Below, in pieces: positions 1-26,885 of a DNA stretch of 26,885 bases. Within the stretch, counting starts at the first letter, position 1, and every line of letters starts with the position of its first letter. Under the pieces are notes generated by a model. The model was not told the DNA's origin. It was given only the letters and a program-made list of their open reading frames with translations, and ran no database searches. This DNA comes from a virus (Duplodnaviria; Caudoviricetes). The translations under genes were made by a program, and so were the position numbers. The stretch spans positions 1-26,885 of the IMG/VR virus record IMGVR_UViG_3300010239_000031; one strand, given 5' to 3'.

Positions 1-462
1 CTATACTGGGATTCCCCTCTCAAGAAGTATCTTGGCGAGTTCTTCCTCAGAGACACCATAAATCCTACTAGCAAGCTGTATAAGATCCTCCCCATTCCCA
101 TTCACAACATCCCGTGGAGAGTGTAACCCTCTTTCCTCCAGCCTATCAATGACAAATCGCACAGCTTCCCTGCACTCCCAGGATTGCTCCTTAGGGAGTC
201 GCTCTGTCTCCTCAAGTATCTCTCTTTCTCTCCTCTGTAATTCCTCGAGTTCTTTCTCCAACCTCTCCCTCTTATCCCATATCCTCTTCAGCTCCTCCTC
301 AAGCTCCTGCCCGTATAACTCAGGGATGATCCCCTGGTTCTTACGCAGCATCCTGGCGAAGTACTCAATGGCATCAGCGAATGTGTACTTACTCTTCTTT
401 ATAGTGTCCCTATCCACCTCTGAAACCCTGACACTTACCATCACAGACTTCGGGGGTTTCAT
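1..462 (-). CDS. Putative RHH-type DNA-binding protein with coiled coil
   Basis: N-terminal VMVSVRVSEVDRDTIK beta-helix pattern, E/R/L heptads in the middle; ATGA overlap with the upstream ORF. Confidence 0.6.
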   Translation of the reverse strand: MKPPKSVMVSVRVSEVDRDTIKKSKYTFADAIEYFARMLRKNQGIIPELYGQELEEELKRIWDKRERLEKELEELQRREREILEETERLPKEQSWECREAVRFVIDRLEERGLHSPRDVVNGNGEDLIQLASRIYGVSEEELAKILLERGIPV

Positions 463-740
463 GAGGATTCCCCCTCTATTGTTTCTCTCCTCTCTTTCTC
501 CTGGTATTCCCTCCTCTTTTCATCCCTCCTCCTGCAGGCCTCCTCATGCTCCAGGGCCATCCTACGCAACACCTCCTCGACACGGACCTCGTCTATGAGA
601 TCATAGACACTCATCGATTCTCTGAAGTAGTAGTTCATCTGGTTCAGGAAGAGCTGCATCACCCTCCCAATATCCACATTATTCTCAACAAAGAACCGGT
701 AGAGGCCATCATCAACTCTTAACTTCACATCCACGAGCAT
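459..740 (-). CDS. Hypothetical protein, RHH/antitoxin-like N-terminus
   Basis: VDVKLRVDDGLYRFFVENNVDIGRVMQLFL; GGAGGGGG RBS; coupled to neighbours. Confidence 0.55.
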   Translation of the reverse strand: MLVDVKLRVDDGLYRFFVENNVDIGRVMQLFLNQMNYYFRESMSVYDLIDEVRVEEVLRRMALEHEEACRRRDEKRREYQEKERRETIEGESS

Positions 741-821
741 TCATCCCCCCTCCGCGATGTAGTGATGCTCCTTGAGTATCTCATCATCCATTGTTATCGT
801 TGTAACCCCCAGGGCGTTCAC
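741..821 (-). CDS. Small ORF, 26 aa (MNALGVTTITMDDEILKEHHYIAEGG), not in ORF track
   Basis: GTGA overlap with the upstream stop, TGA directly abutting the next ATG; fills the gap exactly. Confidence 0.4.
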   Translation of the reverse strand: MNALGVTTITMDDEILKEHHYIAEGG

Positions 822-1057
822 CCCCTGACTGAGTATAGAGTGACAGGTTTCCCATGCCTATTCCGAGTACACCCTGAGGGGCGGGCCACCCGGCGGGTGT
901 GTATTGTGACAGCCTGCCGGGTGGCCTCATATTTCCTCCCGAAGGTGTACTTGGTGTGGAGGAGTCGCTGCAGCTCCTCCACGGTCAAGTCACCATGTTC
1001 ATGTAGTAGTTCCCTTATCGCGTCCTGGAGGTCTTTCCGGCTACAGATTGTCTGCAT
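818..1057 (-). CDS. Winged-helix-like DNA-binding protein (79 aa; start re-called at MQTICS)
   Basis: LQDAIRELLHEHGDLTVEELQRLL...TRQAV pattern; GGAGGT RBS before the ATG at 1057. Confidence 0.6.
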   Translation of the reverse strand: MQTICSRKDLQDAIRELLHEHGDLTVEELQRLLHTKYTFGRKYEATRQAVTIHTRRVARPSGCTRNRHGKPVTLYSVRG

Positions 1058-1148
1058 CCTCTTTAACCTCCACTGTTTCATCGTGGGCCCATTCGATGAG
1101 GTTCTTCCATGCGGATATCGCTTCCAGTATTTCATCTGCATCCGGCAT
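1041..1148 (-). CDS. Small acidic ORF, 35 aa (MPDADEILEAISAWKNLIEWAHDETVEVKEDADNL), not in ORF track
   Basis: GGGGGATGA RBS; amphipathic helix; overlaps both neighbours. Confidence 0.5.
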   Translation of the reverse strand: MPDADEILEAISAWKNLIEWAHDETVEVKEDADNL

Positions 1149-1269
1149 CCGAATCATCCCCCATATCATCATCCATATCTAACTTTACTCGTTGGGGCTT
1201 GCTCCAGGGGCATTCTTTTTCCTTGCAGCGCCCCAAGATGTAATGGCTGCACTGGACAGTCACCTTCAT
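1132..1269 (-). CDS. Small Cys-rich ORF, 45 aa (MKVTVQCSHYILGRCKEKECPWSK...), possible zinc finger, not in ORF track
   Basis: ATG abuts the upstream TGA, G-rich RBS, C-x7-C-x4-C spacing. Confidence 0.5.
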   Translation of the reverse strand: MKVTVQCSHYILGRCKEKECPWSKPQRVKLDMDDDMGDDSDAGCR

Positions 1270-1527
1270 TCATTCACCCCCCCCCTCATGCGTAGAATCA
1301 CTGAGGAGGTATCGGAGCACCGCCCAGCAATGTTTGCACAGGTAGGATCCCTCCTCCCCATGACGATAATAATAGTCAGGGCACTCACATCTCATCATAT
1401 TGTCTAGGACAGTGACAAGATACTCCCCACTCCCTGACCTCACGATGAAGGCGAGGAGGGAGGGGTCATCCTCCTCCACGGCTTCAACCTTGAGTTCCTG
1501 GGATTTCAGAACACGATCCCATACCAT
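1270..1527 (-). CDS. SWIM zinc-finger protein
   Basis: VRSGSGEYLV...CECPDY...CKHCWAV (CxC-xn-CxH). Confidence 0.8.
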   Translation of the reverse strand: MVWDRVLKSQELKVEAVEEDDPSLLAFIVRSGSGEYLVTVLDNMMRCECPDYYYRHGEEGSYLCKHCWAVLRYLLSDSTHEGGGE

Positions 1528-1708
1528 CTACTCCCCCCCTTATGTACTCCGCCTCTAGGTTCACGTAATCCATGTAGTAAAGGAGGGCGTCGTTAATGAT
1601 CTGGTTCATGCTAACCTTCACGCCCTCCTCCCTGGCTGTTTCAACCAGTTCCTTCAGGTAGGCATAGACCCCCTCAGGTAGGGTTATTGATGTCCTGACA
1701 TACTCCAT
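1484..1708 (-). CDS. Ribbon-helix-helix transcription regulator
   Basis: RTSITLPEGVYAYLKELV...VSMNQIINDALLYY; GGTGGTGGTG RBS. Confidence 0.8.
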   Translation of the reverse strand: MEYVRTSITLPEGVYAYLKELVETAREEGVKVSMNQIINDALLYYMDYVNLEAEYIRGGVDGMGSCSEIPGTQG

Positions 1709-1719
1709 GACACCACCAC

Positions 1720-2250
1720 CTATGCCTCTAATTTCTCTTTGATCCTGAGGTAATCGGACTCTGTGATCCGACCCTCAGTGTAGATGTTATCTAATTCTTC
1801 AAGCACGTTCGTCCTGGTGGCTTCCCCTCTTCTGGCCCTTGTCAACATGATTAGGGCCTTTAATTCTTTGTCATCACTGAAATCCTCTTCACTGAGGACC
1901 CCCAGTTTCATGGGTTTGTGGTGGCCTAGTTTCTTCACTTTCACTGTGTAACTGTGGTACTCCGCACCCTTCTGGGATCTTGCTTTACCATTGTATGTGA
2001 TCCAGACACCCCATCCTTCCTGTATCCTGTCAAAGTATTTCTCCAGGGCCTTGTGGCCTTTCACGTAGTATTCCCCGTCTGCTGTTTGGAGGGTCATGAC
2101 TTTTAGGCTGCCGAGTTTTGTGTGTATCTCCTTGATGCCTTTGCAGATGCCACGTATACTTTCTCCCTCCATGGGGTTCCAGAACATTGCTGATTCGTTC
2201 AGGTCTTCCCATCCTTTATCATTCTCTAATTCCAGTAGCAGGTCATTCAA
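1720..2250 (-). CDS. Putative OB-fold single-stranded DNA-binding protein
   Basis: FWNP-EGESIRG...YYVKGHKAL...GVWITYNGK...YHSYTV beta-rich aromatic pattern seen in viral SSB-like proteins. Confidence 0.5.
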   Translation of the reverse strand: MNDLLLELENDKGWEDLNESAMFWNPMEGESIRGICKGIKEIHTKLGSLKVMTLQTADGEYYVKGHKALEKYFDRIQEGWGVWITYNGKARSQKGAEYHSYTVKVKKLGHHKPMKLGVLSEEDFSDDKELKALIMLTRARRGEATRTNVLEELDNIYTEGRITESDYLRIKEKLEA

Positions 2251-2253
2251 TAT

Positions 2254-2511
2254 TCACACCCCCTTTAAGAGTTTTTTAAGCATTTCCAGCTTCCCATAAG
2301 GACTGAGTCTGAAGTATTCAGTGGGGACATTCACACCCGCCTTTCTTAGGTGCTCCAGGCCAGCTTCGGCCCATGCATCCATCCTTATACGTGAAGTTTT
2401 CCTCTCAGCTATTCTCGCAGCTAACCTGGCGAGTGATAGATGGTCTCGGGGTGTCCTGGAGAACATCTCAAGGTCATGGTATTCATCCATTAATCCCATA
2501 ACATCAACCAC
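2254..2511 (-). CDS. Hypothetical protein
   Basis: ORF tightly packed in the leftward operon. Confidence 0.6.
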   Translation of the reverse strand: MVDVMGLMDEYHDLEMFSRTPRDHLSLARLAARIAERKTSRIRMDAWAEAGLEHLRKAGVNVPTEYFRLSPYGKLEMLKKLLKGV

Positions 2512-2634
2512 CTACAATCCAAATGTGTGGTATGGTGCAACTTCGAGTGTCTTCATAAATCCCATGAAAATGAAAAGGAGGAGTATTAGGAGGATGAGGA
2601 TCACAGCACTCATGTTCAGATCGGACATCACCAT
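2512..2634 (-). CDS. Small single-TM protein, 40 aa (MVMSDLNMSAVILILLILLLFIFMGFMKTLEVAPYHTFGL), not in ORF track
   Basis: One strongly hydrophobic helix; GGGGGATGA RBS; coupled on both sides. Confidence 0.6.
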   Translation of the reverse strand: MVMSDLNMSAVILILLILLLFIFMGFMKTLEVAPYHTFGL

Positions 2635-2768
2635 TCATCCCCCTTCTCAAGGTCTAGTTTTAGCCATTTCAGCACATCATCCACAGTCTTCCGGTACTTG
2701 TGTATATCGTCAATGTCTCTTGCTAGAAGGAGGCGGTTGTAAAGTTCCTTTTTTGTCAGAGACATCAT
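2628..2768 (-). CDS. Small ORF, 46 aa (MMSLTKKELYNRLLLARDIDDIHKYRKTVDDVLKWLKLDLEKGDEW), not in ORF track
   Basis: ATGA overlap with the upstream stop, GGGGGG RBS, helical composition. Confidence 0.6.
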   Translation of the reverse strand: MMSLTKKELYNRLLLARDIDDIHKYRKTVDDVLKWLKLDLEKGDEW

Positions 2769-3217
2769 TTATACCCCCCCATAACGGCCTCATATTCTGT
2801 GTTGTACTCATCCACGAGTTCATCGTCGCTGTATGATATGATGTCAAGGTATGCGAGCCTCACGATCTTAGGGGTGATGATGACATCCCCCTCCCCTTTT
2901 TCACGGAGTGTTTTGACCCTTGCGAGGCTACCGGCGTCATCAAATAGCTGGTTGGCCAGGGCCTGGATCATACTCTCTAACTCACACATTGCCGCAGGTG
3001 TTATGATGGCCTTGTTTGGGTTCCTGATCCCCATGTGTTTCTCGTGGATTTGAGCTTCTAGGGCCTCGCGGGGGTTTTGGATTTTTACCCTGACCCCTGC
3101 GTGGTCCCTGTAGGTTTCGAGGGCTTCTTCTATTTCTTCAGGATATCCCGTTTCACGGGTTTCCTTGTATTTCATCCAGGTTTCCAGTTTTTTCCCAAGA
3201 ACAATTTTTTCTTCCAT
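2765..3217 (-). CDS. Divergent histone-fold protein
   Basis: Residues 71-100 IITPAAMCELESMIQALANQLFDDAGSLAR align without gaps to archaeal histone L1/alpha2 (RVSDDARITLAKILEEMGRDIASEAIKLAR); ITPKIVRLAY matches alpha3 (IKAEDIELAV). Confidence 0.65.
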   Translation of the reverse strand: MEEKIVLGKKLETWMKYKETRETGYPEEIEEALETYRDHAGVRVKIQNPREALEAQIHEKHMGIRNPNKAIITPAAMCELESMIQALANQLFDDAGSLARVKTLREKGEGDVIITPKIVRLAYLDIISYSDDELVDEYNTEYEAVMGGYK

Positions 3218-3240
3218 TTAAGTCGCCGCCTTTTGCTTTT

Positions 3241-3330
3241 GTGATCTAAAATATTATCTTTATAATATATAAATCTTTTTATCTTTAATTCTTTATTATA
3301 TTTATACTAAAGATAAGTTTTTTATGTGAT
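3241..3330. promoter_or_regulatory. Divergent promoter region with TTATCTTTA operator-like repeats
   Basis: AT-rich with TATA-like boxes on both strands; TTATCTTTA at 3254-3262 and 3279-3287, inverted copy at 3308-3316. Confidence 0.65.
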
Positions 3331-3348
3331 GCTACATGAGTAACTATC

Positions 3349-3528
3349 ATGAAAGATAAAGAAGAAAAGAAAGTCCCTGTGAACTTGAGAGTATCTGAAA
3401 AAAAATTGAAAATATTCAAGGCAATTGCGATGCTTAAATTCGAAAAAAACCCCATAACATCTGCTTGGGAAGAAGCGATAGACCTCTTCATCGAGCAAAA
3501 TAAGAAATACCTCGATGAAATCAAGTAA
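3349..3528 (+). CDS. RHH repressor candidate, 59 aa (MKDKEEKKVPVNLRVSEKKLKIFKAIAMLKFEKNPITSAWEEAIDLFIEQNKKYLDEIK), not in ORF track
   Basis: Typical RHH beta-strand (VPVNLRV) plus two helices; divergent from the early operon. Confidence 0.8.
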   Translation: MKDKEEKKVPVNLRVSEKKLKIFKAIAMLKFEKNPITSAWEEAIDLFIEQNKKYLDEIK

Positions 3529-3539
3529 ATTTCTCTCAG

Positions 3540-3570
3540 GCCCCCTTTCCGGTCGCCGCCTAAAGGGGGC
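3540..3570. terminator. 9-bp GC stem-loop after the repressor gene
   Basis: GCCCCCTTT (3540-3548) / AAAGGGGGC (3562-3570). Confidence 0.5.
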
Positions 3571-3617
3571 GCCTCTCTCTCATACACCACCCCTCTTATT
3601 CTGGAACCAAACCCCGC

Positions 3618-3752
3618 CAAGGGGCATCTATATATACCCTTGCCTCTTATAACTATCACATAGCATCCCACCCAGACCTGGGATGCGACCCCCCAAACCC
3701 TAGAGGGAGTGGAACATGGTGGGCAGACCATTAAACCCCTAGGGTCTGGGGG
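3618..3752. other. Structured non-coding element (possible ncRNA or 3' UTR)
   Basis: Stems CAAGGG/CCCTTG, GCATCCCA/TGGGATGC (3663-3686), and a 17-bp stem 3690-3706/3736-3752. Confidence 0.45.
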
Positions 3753-3817
3753 ACACCCTACAAGGGATAATCAGGAGAAAATAAATAATACCCTTAACGT
3801 GGGAGAGCCCCTGAAAA

Positions 3818-5026
3818 CTAATCACTTATTCTTCGCAGGAACTCAGGGTCAGACATGATAACATTGTAAAGCTTCTCAGTCTTCTTCACCCACTCTCTTA
3901 ACTTCTCCTGAGACTCACGCAATTCTTTAATCTCATTCTCCTTCTCTTCCAGTTCTTTCACAATCTCACGAACCTCAGGGGCCATTACTCGTCTTGTAAC
4001 AGTCTTCTCAAAAGTCAAAGATCGCATCCTTTTTCTGTATTCTCTTTCAAGGTGATCTATATTCACTTTGAAATACGCCTCTGTGACTGGATTCACTTTA
4101 TGACCAAGCAGCCAATCAATTGCCAGCTTATCCATTCCCTCCTTATAAAGGATGGTCGTGAAAAGCTTCCTAAGTTTGTGGGAAGTTAAACGACGATTAC
4201 CCGCTGCATCCCTTCCAAGATAGAATCTGTCATTAAGACGATTGAAAATGTTAGCATAAGTGATCGGTTTGAGTCTATCTCCATTTTGAGTTGAAAATAG
4301 AGGCTGAGTCTCTTTTAAAGGTCCTCCATTTAATCGACGGTACCTTAGATAGTCAAGGATTTTTATATTAGCCTCAGGAGTGCTGAAAGTAACATATGGC
4401 ATTCCTGTCTTTACTCTATTTACCTTCCAAACTCCAACAATCTCTTCATCTTGTATGCGTTTTCTGGCATCCTCATAATCCTCTCCGAGGACATTGAAAC
4501 CTATGGCCTTATTATAATCAACAACATTGAGTCTTCGAAGTTCCGCGGATCCCATCCCACTGGTGAGGTGCAGGAGGATCATGGCTTTTTCCCGTGGATG
4601 GGTGTTGTCCAGGACATTTTTGATCTCATGGAGATTTATAAGATCATCCATGGATTTATTTTCAGGTCGAATTTTGTATGTGATCTTTGGGGGGTCAATC
4701 TCATATTCATTGTATAGTGCTTTGATTTTGGAGATGTATAATCTGATAGTTGATCCTTTGACCCCCTGGTCTTGTAGGTGTTGAATGTATTTTAGGAAAT
4801 ATTGTCTGATCTTGCGTTTTCTTCTTTTAACCCCTGAATCTTCCTCTTTTTCCGCTTCTTCTATTAATTCTGTGATTGTTTTTCCTGTGACTTGTGAGTA
4901 GTGTTGTATTGCTGCAATGTATGTCTCTATAGTTTTTTCTTTTATGTTCCTGGAAAATATGAATTCTTGTAGGAGAGGGTCTTGGAGAAGTTCTTCTTTT
5001 GTTGGGTGTGTTTTCTTGGTGGGCAT
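3818..5026 (-). CDS. int: Tyrosine recombinase / integrase (402 aa; start re-called at MPTKKTHP)
   Basis: SAM-like N-domain, VKTG, HKLRK, LLGH and AYF catalytic motifs; C-terminal coiled coil. Confidence 0.9.
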   Translation of the reverse strand: MPTKKTHPTKEELLQDPLLQEFIFSRNIKEKTIETYIAAIQHYSQVTGKTITELIEEAEKEEDSGVKRRKRKIRQYFLKYIQHLQDQGVKGSTIRLYISKIKALYNEYEIDPPKITYKIRPENKSMDDLINLHEIKNVLDNTHPREKAMILLHLTSGMGSAELRRLNVVDYNKAIGFNVLGEDYEDARKRIQDEEIVGVWKVNRVKTGMPYVTFSTPEANIKILDYLRYRRLNGGPLKETQPLFSTQNGDRLKPITYANIFNRLNDRFYLGRDAAGNRRLTSHKLRKLFTTILYKEGMDKLAIDWLLGHKVNPVTEAYFKVNIDHLEREYRKRMRSLTFEKTVTRRVMAPEVREIVKELEEKENEIKELRESQEKLREWVKKTEKLYNVIMSDPEFLRRISD

Positions 5027-5073
5027 GGATGGTATGTATACTCGCATTGCAAATAAAAATATACAATAATAGA

Positions 5074-5090
5074 AAATTTTTAATAATAAA
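5074..5090 (-). repeat. att-like 17-bp core, left copy (inverted relative to 25169-25185)
   Basis: AAATTTTTAATAATAAA is the exact reverse complement of TTTATTATTAAAAATTT at 25169-25185; about 50 bp upstream of int. Confidence 0.65.
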
Positions 5091-5167
5091 GTTATCCCCA
5101 CTGTTTTTTAATGACAATTAACCCGCCGTCCTGAAAAACAACTTAGCCTATTCGAAACTCTTTGAGA

Positions 5168-16654: not shown

Positions 16655-19600
16655 TTGAGTGATCATAGCCTTGCTGTGCAGGTTCAGATGGATGCTGAGG
16701 AAGTGTTGAACGGTTTGAATGAGATTAACAATATGCTATCAAATCTTCCAGGTTCAGTGGAAGTCGATTTCACCAGTGAAGATGCAATCACTCCCATCCT
16801 TGAATCTATCCAGGAGGGTTTGAACAGCCTGCCCTCAGACGTTGAAATCACCATCTCAGCATTCGATGACTTCGCCACAGAGACCATCACAAATCTTAAA
16901 GACCTTGTGGAGGCATTGCCATCAGAAGTGAATGTGAACCTCACAGCAGAGGATAATGCATCGGATCTGCTTGATTCTTTGAAGGAGAAACTCTCTGAGG
17001 AATTCAACATAACATTGAACGTTGATGATAACGCTACAGAAACAATTACAAGCCTGAAAGAACTCCTTAGTGAACTCCCATCCACTGTGGATATCTCCTT
17101 GAATGTGGAGGGTAATGCTACAGAAATAGTTGAGAGACTCCATGAACTCCTAGGGGATATCCCTGATGAGGTCACAACCACAGTGAACGCTGAAGTTAAT
17201 GAAGGGGGGGTGGAAGACCTTAAGGCTAAACTTGAGGAGATCGATGGGACCACATATGATACTGCAGTTAATGTGGATACAGAATCAATTGAAACAGCTA
17301 CTGAGACAACAAACACATTCACCGGAGCTGTTGATGGTTTAACATCGAAGGTTGCTGGCTTAACGGCGGGATTCTTCTCATATAATAAAACACTCGAACT
17401 CTTAGATTATAATAGGATAATTGAGCAGTCAGCAATTCTCACGAATGCAACTCAAAGTCAGAGAGAAGCCATGGAGGATCTAATCCGTGAAAACTATGTC
17501 TACTCACTAGGGATGAAGGGAACAGCGTCAGTGATGTACACACTTGCAGCCTACACCAATGATGTGAACTTGACTATGGGATACTTTGAAGCAGCCCTTC
17601 TTGGGGTTAAAAGGAGTGGTGAGGATGCCTCTACAGTGTCACTGGCACTTGCAAGGGTCTTCAGAAATTTCAATGTCAGCGTCCAGGACTCAATGGATAC
17701 TGTTAATCTCTTCCTTGGGCTTTGGAGGATTTCAGGTTATCCATCCTTCACACAGTTCATTGATACCGTTGATAGGCTCGGATACTTCTTCAGACAAGCC
17801 GGTTTGAATGCTGAGGACACAGCCAGGATAATTGCATCAGTAGGCCCTGTTGGCACACGACTTCTGAGACCATTCGCTAAAGAGTTAACTGAAATCTCAA
17901 GGGAATGGGAGAGGGGTGGTACGGGTGTCCAGGAATACGGTGATAAACTTGAAAAGTTTGGCGTGGCTGTGAAAGACGCTCATGGTAATATCAGACCATT
18001 CCGTGATGTGCTTTTTGATTTTATAGAGGTTCTTTCTCGGATTCCTGATCAGCAGGAACGTGTTAGGGTGGCCACTGAGGTTTTTGGTGAATCGGTGGGG
18101 CCAGCGCTGGCACAGGTGGCAAGTAACTGGAAAACCACGGGTAAGGTAACTGAAGAGGAATCTGAGAGGATGAACAAAGCGCTCGGTAAATCAGCGGAAA
18201 AACATAGGGATATATTAGGATGGATAAGGTACTATCTGGATCAGTTCGTGATATGGTTGAACGATTTTTTCGGTGACATGGGCCTAATCGGAGAATCACT
18301 GCTTGTTGGGGTATTCGCAAAAGCCGCTGAGTACCTTGCCGAAGGCTTAAAGAGACTCATCCCACGTGTCACTGGGGCTATCAGGAGGCTATTGTCCGAC
18401 GGATTCGATGAATTGAAGGGAAGGTTGCCTGAGGAACTGTCACGCCGCCTCATAGATACATTATCTGAAGGATTTGATAAGGCGGCGGGCAAAGCAAAGG
18501 ATATCATTAAGGGGTTTATTGACACGATTAAGAGGATCCTTGGTGATGAGACAGGCCGTTTAACACCTAAAATTGAGATCCCTGCAGAATTCAAATTCAA
18601 ACTCCCCAAAATAGATTTAACTATAGGGGATACTCAGATTGATGACGCTGCAAGGACCCTCCTAGAGAGATTCACGGGGGGTGTTGATGACGCTGCGAGG
18701 GGGTTCCTCTCAAGGTTCTCATCATCATTGGATGATGCTGCGAGGGTGAGCCTCCCCTCCCTCGGATCCAGGATAGGTTCACTCCTTGTGAGGGGTATTG
18801 GTGAGGGTGTGGGTGCGGCTCTCATGACCGTGGACATCCTCGCAAACTTCAGGCAATACTTGAGTGATGCTCTCACAGATCCTACAAAATTAGTTGGGCC
18901 TATAAGCTATACAATCCCTGAACCTTTAAAGAAACTATTAAGTCCCGAAAACCTCTTCAAGAGGCTGTACGGCCCTGAGGAGTGGGAGAAGAGGAAGGGT
19001 ATCCTCATGGATAATACTAAAAAGTATGTAGAGGATCCCATCCGCGAGCAGCTCCGAGAGTTCGCTGAGAACCCGCCAGGGTACCTCATCCAGGGATTCA
19101 GTCAGATGTGGAATGATTTCAAATCATGGGTATCATCTCATATACCCAAGTTCAGATGGCCAAGACTTCCCAGCCTCAGCATACCTAACCCTGTGACTGC
19201 TATCCAATCCGCGTGGGCCAAATTTAGGGAATGGGTGTCATCTCATATACCCCGATTCAGGTGGCCACGCCTACCTAACATCACAATACCCAACATAGTC
19301 GGAGCTATCCAATCCGCTTGGGCCAAATTCAGGTCATGGGTATCATCCAATATACCCCGATTCAGGTGGCCCAGACTCCCCAACGTATCCATGCCTGATA
19401 TCCTCGGGGCATTCAGGAGGACATGGAGCACCTTCACATCTAAGGTTAGGGGGGTCTTCTCAGGCTTCAAGTGGCCACGCCTCCCCCTCCCTAACTTCAG
19501 TGGGATAGCATCCAGTTTCAGAGCGTGGGGGGCACGCTTCATCCACAACCTTGTTGAAGGGATAAGGTCCGCCCTCCCCAACCTGAACAATATCCTCGCT

Positions 19601-24194: not shown

Positions 24195-24348
24195 ATTTAG
24201 GGTTATGATCCCAGAGGATGGTGATGGGCAACTTTCTCTGACCCATTTCCTGAATGAATACACTGGAGATGAGGACTTCGCAGGGTCAGGGGTGATTACT
24301 GAAATTAATGATGAGTTTAATGAATCTAATTTTTGGAGGTGGACATGA
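24184..24348 (+). CDS. Small acidic ORF, 54 aa (MAGEFRVMIPEDGDGQLSLTHFLNEY...FWRWT), not in ORF track
   Basis: RBS-like GGAAGGTGGCGG; ATGA overlap with pei. Confidence 0.5.
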   Translation: MAGEFRVMIPEDGDGQLSLTHFLNEYTGDEDFAGSGVITEINDEFNESNFWRWT

Positions 24349-25028
24349 TTAATAAGAACACTCCAGAGTATGTATCCATAACCCAATTTAAAGACATGTT
24401 AAGCAGGTACAACCGCTTCAAGGAGGTTAATGGGAGAGAACCCAGGGTAGTGTTCATCAACTCAGGTGGGGGCCCAAGCGTATCGTTAGAAACCTTCAAA
24501 GACATGTGCAAGAGATATAATCAGTTCCTTGAAGAAAACCGAAGGGAGCCAAGGATAGTATACGTGACTCCCCCTGAACCACCCGTGCCTGAGGAGGTCA
24601 GGGAGATGCGCAGGGTTCTCGGTGAATTCAAAACAGCCACACAGCTTTACACTCTCGTCTCAAGGAGATGTAAGTACAAATTCTACTATAATGACCAAAC
24701 ACCAAACAGGGAAGCCCTTAAAAAGATGGTGACTGATGGGATCAATTGCACCGACGCCTGTCAAGTTTTCAAGCCAGTTATCGAGGGACTCGGCTATTCA
24801 GTCCGCATAGAACACGTTAAAGTTAAATGTAACGACAACAAGTGGTATGGGCATTACTTCCTCCGCGTCGCGGGGAAGGAATTGGCCAGCGTCAGTCTCC
24901 CCTCTGAACGGTGGACAGTCTGGGACTATGTCAGCGCCACCAAGACGGGCCGGCCCTTGGGGGCCCCCTGCTGTAGTAGGGGTATCCAACATCTTGGTTG
25001 GGGGATAGTGGGTCCTGTTTATGATTGA
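24345..25028 (+). CDS. peiP: Pseudomurein endoisopeptidase (PeiP-like endolysin) with two PMB repeats
   Basis: PMB repeats (FKDM..RY..F...N.REPR.V), transglutaminase-like triad INCTD / YGHY / VWDY; GGAGGTGG RBS. Confidence 0.93.
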   Translation: MINKNTPEYVSITQFKDMLSRYNRFKEVNGREPRVVFINSGGGPSVSLETFKDMCKRYNQFLEENRREPRIVYVTPPEPPVPEEVREMRRVLGEFKTATQLYTLVSRRCKYKFYYNDQTPNREALKKMVTDGINCTDACQVFKPVIEGLGYSVRIEHVKVKCNDNKWYGHYFLRVAGKELASVSLPSERWTVWDYVSATKTGRPLGAPCCSRGIQHLGWGIVGPVYD

Positions 25029-25168: not shown

Positions 25169-25185
25169 TTTATTATTAAAAATTT
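25169..25185 (+). repeat. att-like 17-bp core, right copy (candidate attR)
   Basis: TTTATTATTAAAAATTT between pei and the first ORB; reverse complement at 5074-5090. Confidence 0.65.
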
Positions 25186-25206: not shown

Positions 25207-25591
25207 TTCAACTGTAAAAGGTTCTTTCCTGGTTCAGCCTGGTTTACAGAGCGAAAAATAAAAACCTTAAATACACTTGAAATAAATGTCTCAAAAAATC
25301 GAGATCAATTAATACTAACTTACACTTGAAATGGATGTCTCCCTTACAGGTCATCAGAACCATGGTCAGATTACACTTGAAATGAATGTCTCACACATCT
25401 CCCCCTGAATCAGAAAAAGGGCCGAGGAAGAGCAGGATTTTTACACTTGAAATTCATCTCTCATGAGTTCCCATCGAGGATGCAGATGGTTACACTTGAA
25501 ATGGATGTCCCACATACGTTATTATAAATCAAGCTGGTTTTAATAAAAACTTTTATCTAATAGTTGGAATAAGAAAATTTACACTTGAAAT
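25207..25591. other. oriC: Chromosomal replication origin oriC with ORB repeats
   Basis: TTACACTTGAAAT at 25320, 25371, 25441, 25490 and 25579; a 1-mismatch copy at 25271; an inverted TTACAGTTGAA at 25207-25217; AT-rich tract about 25518-25560; directly upstream of cdc6. Confidence 0.92.
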
Positions 25592-25736
25592 CTACCACAC
25601 TCCCACATCAGGGAATGGTAGTACGGGGCGCTGCCAGCTGAAAAGGTCATCCTGAATTTCACTGTATCCAGATTTTAGGGCCTTTATTGATAATTTGATG
25701 CAGCAGTTTTCTCTAAAAATTAGTTGAAGTGGTACC

Positions 25737-26885
25737 ATGAACATTTTTGATGAGATAGGGGACAAAGAATCTGTTTTTAAGGATAAGAAATATCTTGATC
25801 ACAGGTTCCTTCCTGACAGATTACCTCACAGGGAGGAGCAGATACGATCAATAGCCAAGTACTGGGTCGAGGCCCTCAATGGAGTGACACCTCCAGATAT
25901 CACAATCTATGGTAAAACAGGTACAGGGAAAACTGCAGTTGCAAAATTTGCCATGAAACAGCTGAAGGAGGCATCAAAGGACTGTGACGTGAATATAAGG
26001 ACTGAATACATCCGCTGCACAGATTACACAACAGAGTACCAGGTCATAGCAAGATTATGCCAGCAGCTTGGTCGTGATGTCCCCTACCGTGGCTGGACAA
26101 AGGCTGAAATCGTGAACACCTTCAGGAACATGTTCAAGAAAAACGCCTTTGGCCAGGACATGATACTCATGGTCGTACTTGATGAAGTAGACATACTCCT
26201 CAGAAATGATGGAGATGGACTCCTGTACACCCTCACAAGGACAGATAATGTCTCCATTTTATCCATAAGTAACTACGTGGAATTCAAGAAATTCATAAAA
26301 CCCCGGGTTAGGAGCAGCCTCCGGGACAGGGAGATAGTTTTCCCACCCTATGGGGCCCAGCAGCTTGTTGATATCCTTGAGGAGAGATCAAAGATGTCCT
26401 TCAAGGAGGGTGCCCTTGATGATGATGTCATACCCCTATGCGCAGCTCTGGCAGCCAAGGAGGAGGGTGATGCAAGGTACGCCCTGGACCTCCTCAGGAC
26501 AGCAGGTGAAATTGCCGATGAAAGGGACTCAGATAAAGTCCTGGGGGACTTTGTGAGGGAGGCCAAGGACTACATAGAACACAACAAGATCACGGACATA
26601 ATACTGACACTACCGAGCCAGCAGCAGAGGGTGCTTGAGGCCATACTCTACCTCACAAAGAGGAAGGAGGAAATAACCTCCGGAAGGCTTTATGAGGTCT
26701 ACAAGGAAATAGCAAAGGGGGACTCTGTTTCCTACAGGAGGATATTTGACTTCATAAACGAGCTTGAAATGCTCGGCCTCATATCCACAAATACTGTTTC
26801 ACGGGGAAGGGGAAAGGGACGTACAAATATCATAGACTTGCAGTGCGAAACCTCCCTCCTGGAGGACTCACTCTGGGGTGTTTAA
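25737..26885 (+). CDS. cdc6: Orc1/Cdc6 replication initiator
   Basis: LPHREEQI, Walker A GKTGTGKT, Walker [17 protein letters not shown]-terminal winged helix (ELEMLGLI...RGRGKGRT). Confidence 0.98.

Follow-up and report, generated by a model that had tools for sequence, protein, structure and literature searches.

Histone folds of tailed viruses have been described as 'phage histones' by Schwab 2024 (PMC11390915). Liu 2025 (PMC13681535) described the viral histone-fold proteins VTTHFP, VHHHFP, VFFHFP, BBVHFP, MFVHFP and VKHFP, and reported histone-fold proteins of Caudoviricetes that include HMf-like ones in viruses of Methanobacteriota. What is known of histone folds in tailed viruses comes nearly all from surveys of metagenomes, and functional tests are few. 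Here we analysed a 26,885-nucleotide stretch, IMG/VR record IMGVR_UViG_3300010239_000031 (the window), which is a psiM2/psiM100-type tailed provirus with genes for integrase, terminase, portal, protease, capsid and pseudomurein endoisopeptidase, and with host cdc6 at its right end. The open reading frame (ORF) at 2765-3217 on the minus strand encodes a 150-residue protein (P0001), the orthologue of psiM2 ORF31 and probably a histone-fold protein. Viral histone-fold proteins being already known, ORF31 would add a further variant to them, previously unrecognised in psiM2.

The ORF31 gene and its family

The window protein is 97% identical to ORF31 of psiM2 (AAC27070, UniRef O80220) and 39% identical to that of psiM100 (AAG39944), both annotated as 'unknown', and matches PHROG 37053 (unknown function, E 2e-81). 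Full-length homology and synteny, at the same place after the integrase, both assign it to this psiM2-like ORF31 family. The family found is small; 29 sequences with identities down to 30% were aligned, leaving out P0017 (a chance match), P0024 (a long-start duplicate) and P0033-P0040 (found later), and 18 invariant columns are spread over the whole length. In comparisons with related loci, third codon positions were the most divergent in four of five, and with psiM2, where there are only 10 differences, first and third positions tied. ORF31 is a real gene. Members with readable context, which do not include the deepest clade (P0016 and P0029-31), all lie in psiM2-like viral loci. Family members are acidic (isoelectric point 4.7-5.3), in contrast to the plasmid histone P0032 (9.0). 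ORF31 is a conserved, unannotated gene of psiM2-type Methanothermobacter viruses, in which it adjoins the likely switch between lysis and lysogeny.

No link between ORF31 and a histone fold was found in the paper titles and abstract openings searched, subscription literature (among it the first genome reports of psiM2 and psiM100) excepted. O80220 does not occur in supplementary file 3 of PMC11390915, nor do the IMG/VR identifiers of psiM2 and two relatives in three supplementary files of PMC13681535 (3,982 IMG/VR identifiers). Table S3 of Liu 2021 (PMC8651126) gives 18 annotated psiM2 genes, with ORF31 not among them, and a term search for 'histone' or 'ORF31' in the main text of a preprint (10.64898/2026.10.07.757236) returned neither.

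Predicted fold and relation to archaeal histones

The AlphaFold model of the window protein contains helices at residues 49-62, 74-107 and 116-130, with pLDDT values of 82-92 per block across residues 51-140, and the same layout was predicted for P0016, a relative at 34% identity. The predicted order of a short alpha1, loop L1, a long alpha2, loop L2 and alpha3 superposes on solved histone folds. The initial annotation had read a divergent histone fold from the sequence and named a Foldseek search as a check; the search retrieved histone folds, and on re-alignment all 50 of 50 rows were histones or histone-fold complexes. In a Foldseek-independent search of 48,161 chains, 17 rows of the top 50 span all three helices, and all 17 are histones or histone-fold complexes by title. 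Model residues 47-129 superpose on residues 65-134 of H3 with a root mean square deviation (rmsd) of 2.6-2.9 Å. H3/CENP-A, H2B and TAF9/TAF12 were the best structural matches, yet share only 8-21% identity in those alignments, and the eukaryotic likeness probably reflects similar loop and helix lengths rather than descent.

Residues were mapped with HMfB numbering taken from the alignment with 1a7w_A. HMfB R19-H49 corresponds to I71-V101 at an offset of +52 without gaps, and K53-V64 to V112-Y123 at an offset of +59, leaving seven extra residues between the two blocks, before L2. The equivalents of R19, H49, T54 and D59 are I71, V101, I113 and I118, so that the mapping given in the initial annotation (I and I for R19 and T54, V and I for H49 and D59, ungapped over 71-100, with seven extra residues) proved exact. 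For the window protein alone, the ungapped 30-residue match was not significant: 95 and 43 of 500 shuffled sequences did equally well with two archaeal histones. When proteins were compared with histones, the highest-scoring register coincided with the homologous position in 10 of 10 cases. With P0016, only 3 and 1 of 500 shuffles reached the match score. Over 43 mapped positions, identity to each of two archaeal histones is 15/43 in the P0016 clade and 9/43 in the window protein, and that clade carries the motifs R-V-T-x-D-A and T-V-x-x-D-x-I-x-L-A in the correct order and spacing.

Profile comparisons gave weaker signals. In the family hidden Markov model (HMM), two archaeal histones outscored 999 and 987 of 1000 shuffles, yet reversed sequences scored equally, indicating that this signal is largely that of an amphipathic helix. 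The hhalign probability was 4% (E 0.011). The top PDB match of the family profiles was the viral histone doublet 9cvt, with E values of 0.91, 0.0085, 0.014 and 0.08 for four alignments, the match at 0.0085 covering both of its folds. PF00125 was matched by P0016 only (E 0.066), and PF00808 by none of the family members scanned. With either query, most clusters retrieved from a language-model atlas were histone folds, at scores (0.83-0.88) that count as a lead. For alpha2, hydropathy backed the assigned register (r 0.66 at offset 0 against 0.60 at +8), but for alpha1 and alpha3 it favoured others, which makes position assignments in alpha1 soft. A further weak match (E 0.53) joined profile positions 97-128 (end of alpha2, L2 and alpha3) to the N-terminal part of 3v9r_B, presumably the yeast histone-fold protein MHF2. 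Such a match would agree with histone folds being built from an internal helix-strand-helix repeat. Taking together the AlphaFold layout, the structural searches and the 15/43 identities of the P0016 clade, which bear out the proposed fold, we consider it very probable that the protein adopts a histone fold; the extra helices at both ends are likewise predicted. Descent from an HMf-type archaeal histone would be consistent with these results.

The following parts are assigned on the minus strand from the models and the alignment. Residues 7-39 (3101-3199) are predicted to form a helical hairpin (7-23 and 26-39, with the same layout in P0016) whose first helix is basic and which contains the invariant residues W14, Y17, E28 and Y36; the N-terminal extension of about 47 residues noted initially is present, and is refined by this assignment. 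Alpha1 (residues 49-62; 3032-3073) has no arginine at the position of HMfB R10, its register being uncertain by one turn. L1 (residues 63-73; 2999-3031) is expanded relative to HMf, an insertion that the initial annotation did not mention, with invariant G63, R65, N66 and T73, a net charge of +2 to +5 over 63-72, and the R19-equivalent at 71. Alpha2 (residues 74-107; 2897-2998) carries invariant A76, A88 and A99 at the positions of HMfB A24, G36 and A47. The seven residues that had been assigned to an L2 insertion are indeed extra, but the prediction places much of this stretch in a longer alpha2 that reaches residue 107. L2 and alpha3 (residues 108-130; 2828-2896) include the T54-equivalent 113, the D59-equivalent 118 and invariant G108, L121 and L124. 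Residues 132-146 (2780-2824) are predicted to form an acidic helix roughly where alphaC of H2B sits (H2B chains align over 48-144, rmsd ~5 Å). The supposed acidic C-terminal tail is acidic (net -7 over 125-150), but with an ordered helix predicted and with invariant D131 and N139 it is hardly a tail. Both extensions are predicted to be ordered and hold, in helices or caps, 6 of the 18 invariant residues (W14, Y17, E28, Y36, D131 and N139), which argues against either being a tail.

The predicted architecture was compared with that of described classes. With HMfA/B (PF00808; PDB 1a7w, 1hta) it shares the predicted three-helix fold, full-length alpha2 and alpha3, the core pattern and, in 6/29 members, R19 and T54, but it has 150 residues against ~69, longer L1 and alpha2, and the additional N-terminal hairpin and C-terminal helix. 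The RxTxxxxD motif of nucleosomal archaeal histones (L2/alpha3) is missing from the family, D59 being absent in 29/29 and T54 present in 6/29; R10 and H49 are also absent in all. By the features tested, the family falls outside the nucleosomal (PF00808) class. Phage histones resemble ORF31 in being histone folds of tailed viruses without RxTxxxD and with a C-terminal helix (PMC11390915). In phage histones/VTTHFP, however, the fold is N-terminal, alpha3 is truncated and lysines are conserved, whereas ORF31 has a full-length alpha3 and a helical hairpin before the fold; it has no KOW domain. The alpha3 class, which includes phage histones/VTTHFP and is taken here as defined in PMC11390915 and PMC13681535, has an alpha3 of 3-4 residues, a shortened alpha2 and an N-terminal fold; in ORF31 alpha3 has 15 residues, alpha2 has 34 and the fold starts at residue 49, so that by the features tested it is not a member of this class either. 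Coiled-coil, Mc (MJ1647) and RdgC histones (PMC11390915) likewise have a C-terminal helix after alpha3; the ends of coiled-coil histones are acidic, as in ORF31, and the RdgC histone is also the first gene of an operon. Unlike them, ORF31 has a C-terminal helix of 15 residues (predicted) and lacks the basic alpha1 face, and the family scans recognised no RdgC-like neighbour.

Residue pattern and possible modes of action

The dimer-core pattern (A24, L28, G/A36, I39, A43, A47, L62 and A63 in HMfB numbering) is retained. The loss of H49 and D59, which we take to be the four-helix-bundle (tetramer-interface) residues of HMf, had been noted for the window protein and holds in all 29 members, with V/I/T and I/V/H/M as replacements; an arginine equivalent to R10 is absent in 29/29 as well, and HMf-type stacking is therefore unlikely. 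The initial annotation had also concluded that no DNA-binding residues are kept. This fails for the family, as 6/29 members (P0010, P0015 (psiM100-type), P0016 and P0029-31) keep R19 together with T54, psiM100 ORF31 and the deepest clade among them. In the other 23, position 71 is I (10) or H (13) and position 113 is I or L. R19 and T54, which in HMf pair across the dimer, change together across the family. On a tree whose alignment included these trait columns, the R19/T54 label takes two steps, although the data do not reject one joint loss (p-AU 0.065). Every one of the 29 members has a basic L1 (net +2 to +5, with invariant R65) and a basic N-terminal helix (net +2 to +6 over residues 9-21).

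These results raise the possibility that the ORF31 protein would form a handshake homodimer, capped by helices at both ends. A homodimer is suggested by the joint change of R19 and T54 and by a search of 777 ORFs, from the window and 10 loci, that turned up no further histone-fold paralogue. With H49 and D59 lost throughout, the dimer would be unable to stack into hypernucleosomes; it would likely contact DNA through the basic L1 and the basic N-terminal helix, and would likely regulate or tune early viral transcription from a Cro-like position (see below). We favour this mechanism as a whole, but tentatively, holding it to be somewhat short of an even chance. A broader proposal, more doubtful than the mechanism itself, is that the family is a distinct class of viral histone derivatives: HMf-derived, with conserved helices at both ends, having given up polymerisation and been recruited to the lysis-lysogeny cassette of archaeal tailed viruses in Cro's place, reading DNA or poisoning host histone polymers via a new G-x-R-N basic loop, and preserving the stepwise loss of R19/T54.

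Other modes of action were considered. The protein may be a histone-fold interaction module resembling TAF/NC2 subunits, whose conserved hairpin and end helix hold on to a partner from host or virus (such as the RHH repressor or the basal transcription machinery) and which does not bind DNA alone. The acidity of all members, the lack of R19 and T54 in 23/29, the invariant aromatics W14, Y17 and Y36 outside the fold, the presence of TAF9, TAF12 and SAGA chains among the top structural matches and the co-variation with a neighbouring RHH-like gene agree with this. Nevertheless, the deepest lineages keep R19 and T54, L1 is basic in 29/29, resembling TAFs in structure says nothing of function and co-variation may be mere linkage; we regard the module as rather unlikely. 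The model of the initial annotation, in which the protein would be a dominant-negative or capping partner that forms heterodimers with the HMt histones of the host, caps or dissolves hypernucleosomes and opens chromatin on induction, also appears unlikely. The retained dimer core combined with the loss of H49/D59 in 29/29, the acidity and the finding of no viral partner fold, which would leave the host to supply the second subunit of any obligate heterodimer, are points in its favour, and archaeal histones dimerise both with themselves and with each other (PMC9145170). On the other hand, alleles diverge to 30-39% between viruses with near-identical neighbouring genes, which would be excess drift for a mimic of a conserved histone. 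In addition, the model is nearer in shape to H3, TAF9 and H2B, with L1 and alpha2 longer than in HMf, and an invariant basic L1 is not required for capping. That the protein is a non-histone, all-helical protein with a long amphipathic helix mimicking alpha2 is improbable, considering that all top-50 rows spanning the three helices are histone folds, that the P0016 clade motifs are ordered and correctly spaced with 15/43 identities, and that the models of P0016 and the window protein agree in layout. A bulk architectural role, in which viral DNA is condensed or shielded inside the virion or while it replicates, although giant-virus histones with this fold package genomes (PMC11390915), is highly improbable for a net acidic protein without stacking residues, and nothing points to the packaging role raised initially, the gene lying in a regulatory block beside the integrase, far from the head genes.

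The probable early region and other features of the window

ORF31 is the first gene past an AT-rich intergenic region of 131 bp (3218-3348; 22% GC against 49% for the window), which probably holds divergent promoters and an operator. Across it lies a divergent gene (3349-3528, plus strand) for a 59-residue protein with a ribbon-helix-helix (RHH) look, assigned by eye and probably a repressor; the protein has no Pfam match. Related loci carry both genes in 10 of 10 cases, with the RHH-like protein conserved at 38-98% identity. A tyrosine integrase follows at 3818-5101 on the minus strand (PF00589, E 1e-12; 98% to psiM100 ORF29). Downstream of ORF31, and co-directional with it, are small genes (46, 40 and 85 residues, ORF1, an RHH-like one of 74 residues, SWIM and ORF2-4; 1-2768, minus strand) that probably form an early operon. 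ORF31 heads it by position, as had been stated; the term 'early' should be taken as presumptive.

The RHH-like gene and ORF31 exchange as a block against their neighbours. Compared with the window, psiM100 shows 98% identity in the integrase and in the next gene, 56% in the RHH-like protein and 39% in ORF31, whereas psiM2 shows 62% in the integrase, 98% in the RHH-like protein and 97% in ORF31. The same pattern is seen in contigs of two RNA libraries, which have 497 other nucleotides in place of 2772-3259 between matching flanks. The putative recognition strand of the RHH-like protein differs between cassette types. One locus (L004) mixes the types, indicating that the linkage is loose. The layout recalls the immunity region of lambdoid phages, ORF31 standing where Cro would.

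As ORF31 adjoins the probable repressor, it is a direct candidate for a part in the decision between lytic and non-lytic behaviour. The question is posed for psiM2, a cultured virus whose host is now genetically tractable (preprint 10.64898/2026.10.07.757236), and natural alleles with and without R19/T54 offer a ready comparison of the role of a histone fold in an archaeal virus.

The 'ORF30' of the psiM2 and psiM100 GenBank records (window 3285-3731, minus strand) lies on the ORF31 strand, opposite the RHH-like gene. The RHH-like ORF is the better conserved (56-73% against 42-49%; in L012/L013, 38% against no ORF30 match), and ORF30 is probably its shadow, with the probable repressor left unannotated. 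A cassette of RHH-like gene, ORF31 and 46-residue gene also occurs in a more distant virus (L013 5584-6594, and L012), with a different intergenic region of 213 bp and no nearby integrase. The 40-residue ORF (2512-2634, minus strand) has a hydrophobic stretch by eye. Homologues lie at L002 3926-4048 and L007 2469-2591, and L004 and L013 contain ORFs like it; it is possibly a small membrane protein of the early block, acting in superinfection exclusion.

The 17-bp psiM100 att core occurs twice, inverted, at 5074-5090 (minus) and 25169-25185 (plus), and the att-integrase-ORF4 block (1-5095) has the opposite orientation to the late genes from that seen in psiM2, psiM100 and L007. This inversion may be either real or a misassembly; L008, 99.99% identical over 9.2 kb, may not be independent. 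Upstream of cdc6 (25737-26885), at about 25270-25600, six copies of a 12-bp motif were seen by eye, which look to us like origin-recognition boxes; if so, the right att core would adjoin the host replication origin. psiM100 is flanked instead by mtw1216/mtw1215. Among the late genes, the tape-measure gene contains at 19118-19384 tandem repeats of ~105 bp, 79-82% alike, that encode Trp/Pro/Arg-rich repeated units, and the Pei endoisopeptidase (24333-25028) has 231 residues, with two pseudomurein-binding repeats detected, against 305 in psiM2 PeiP.
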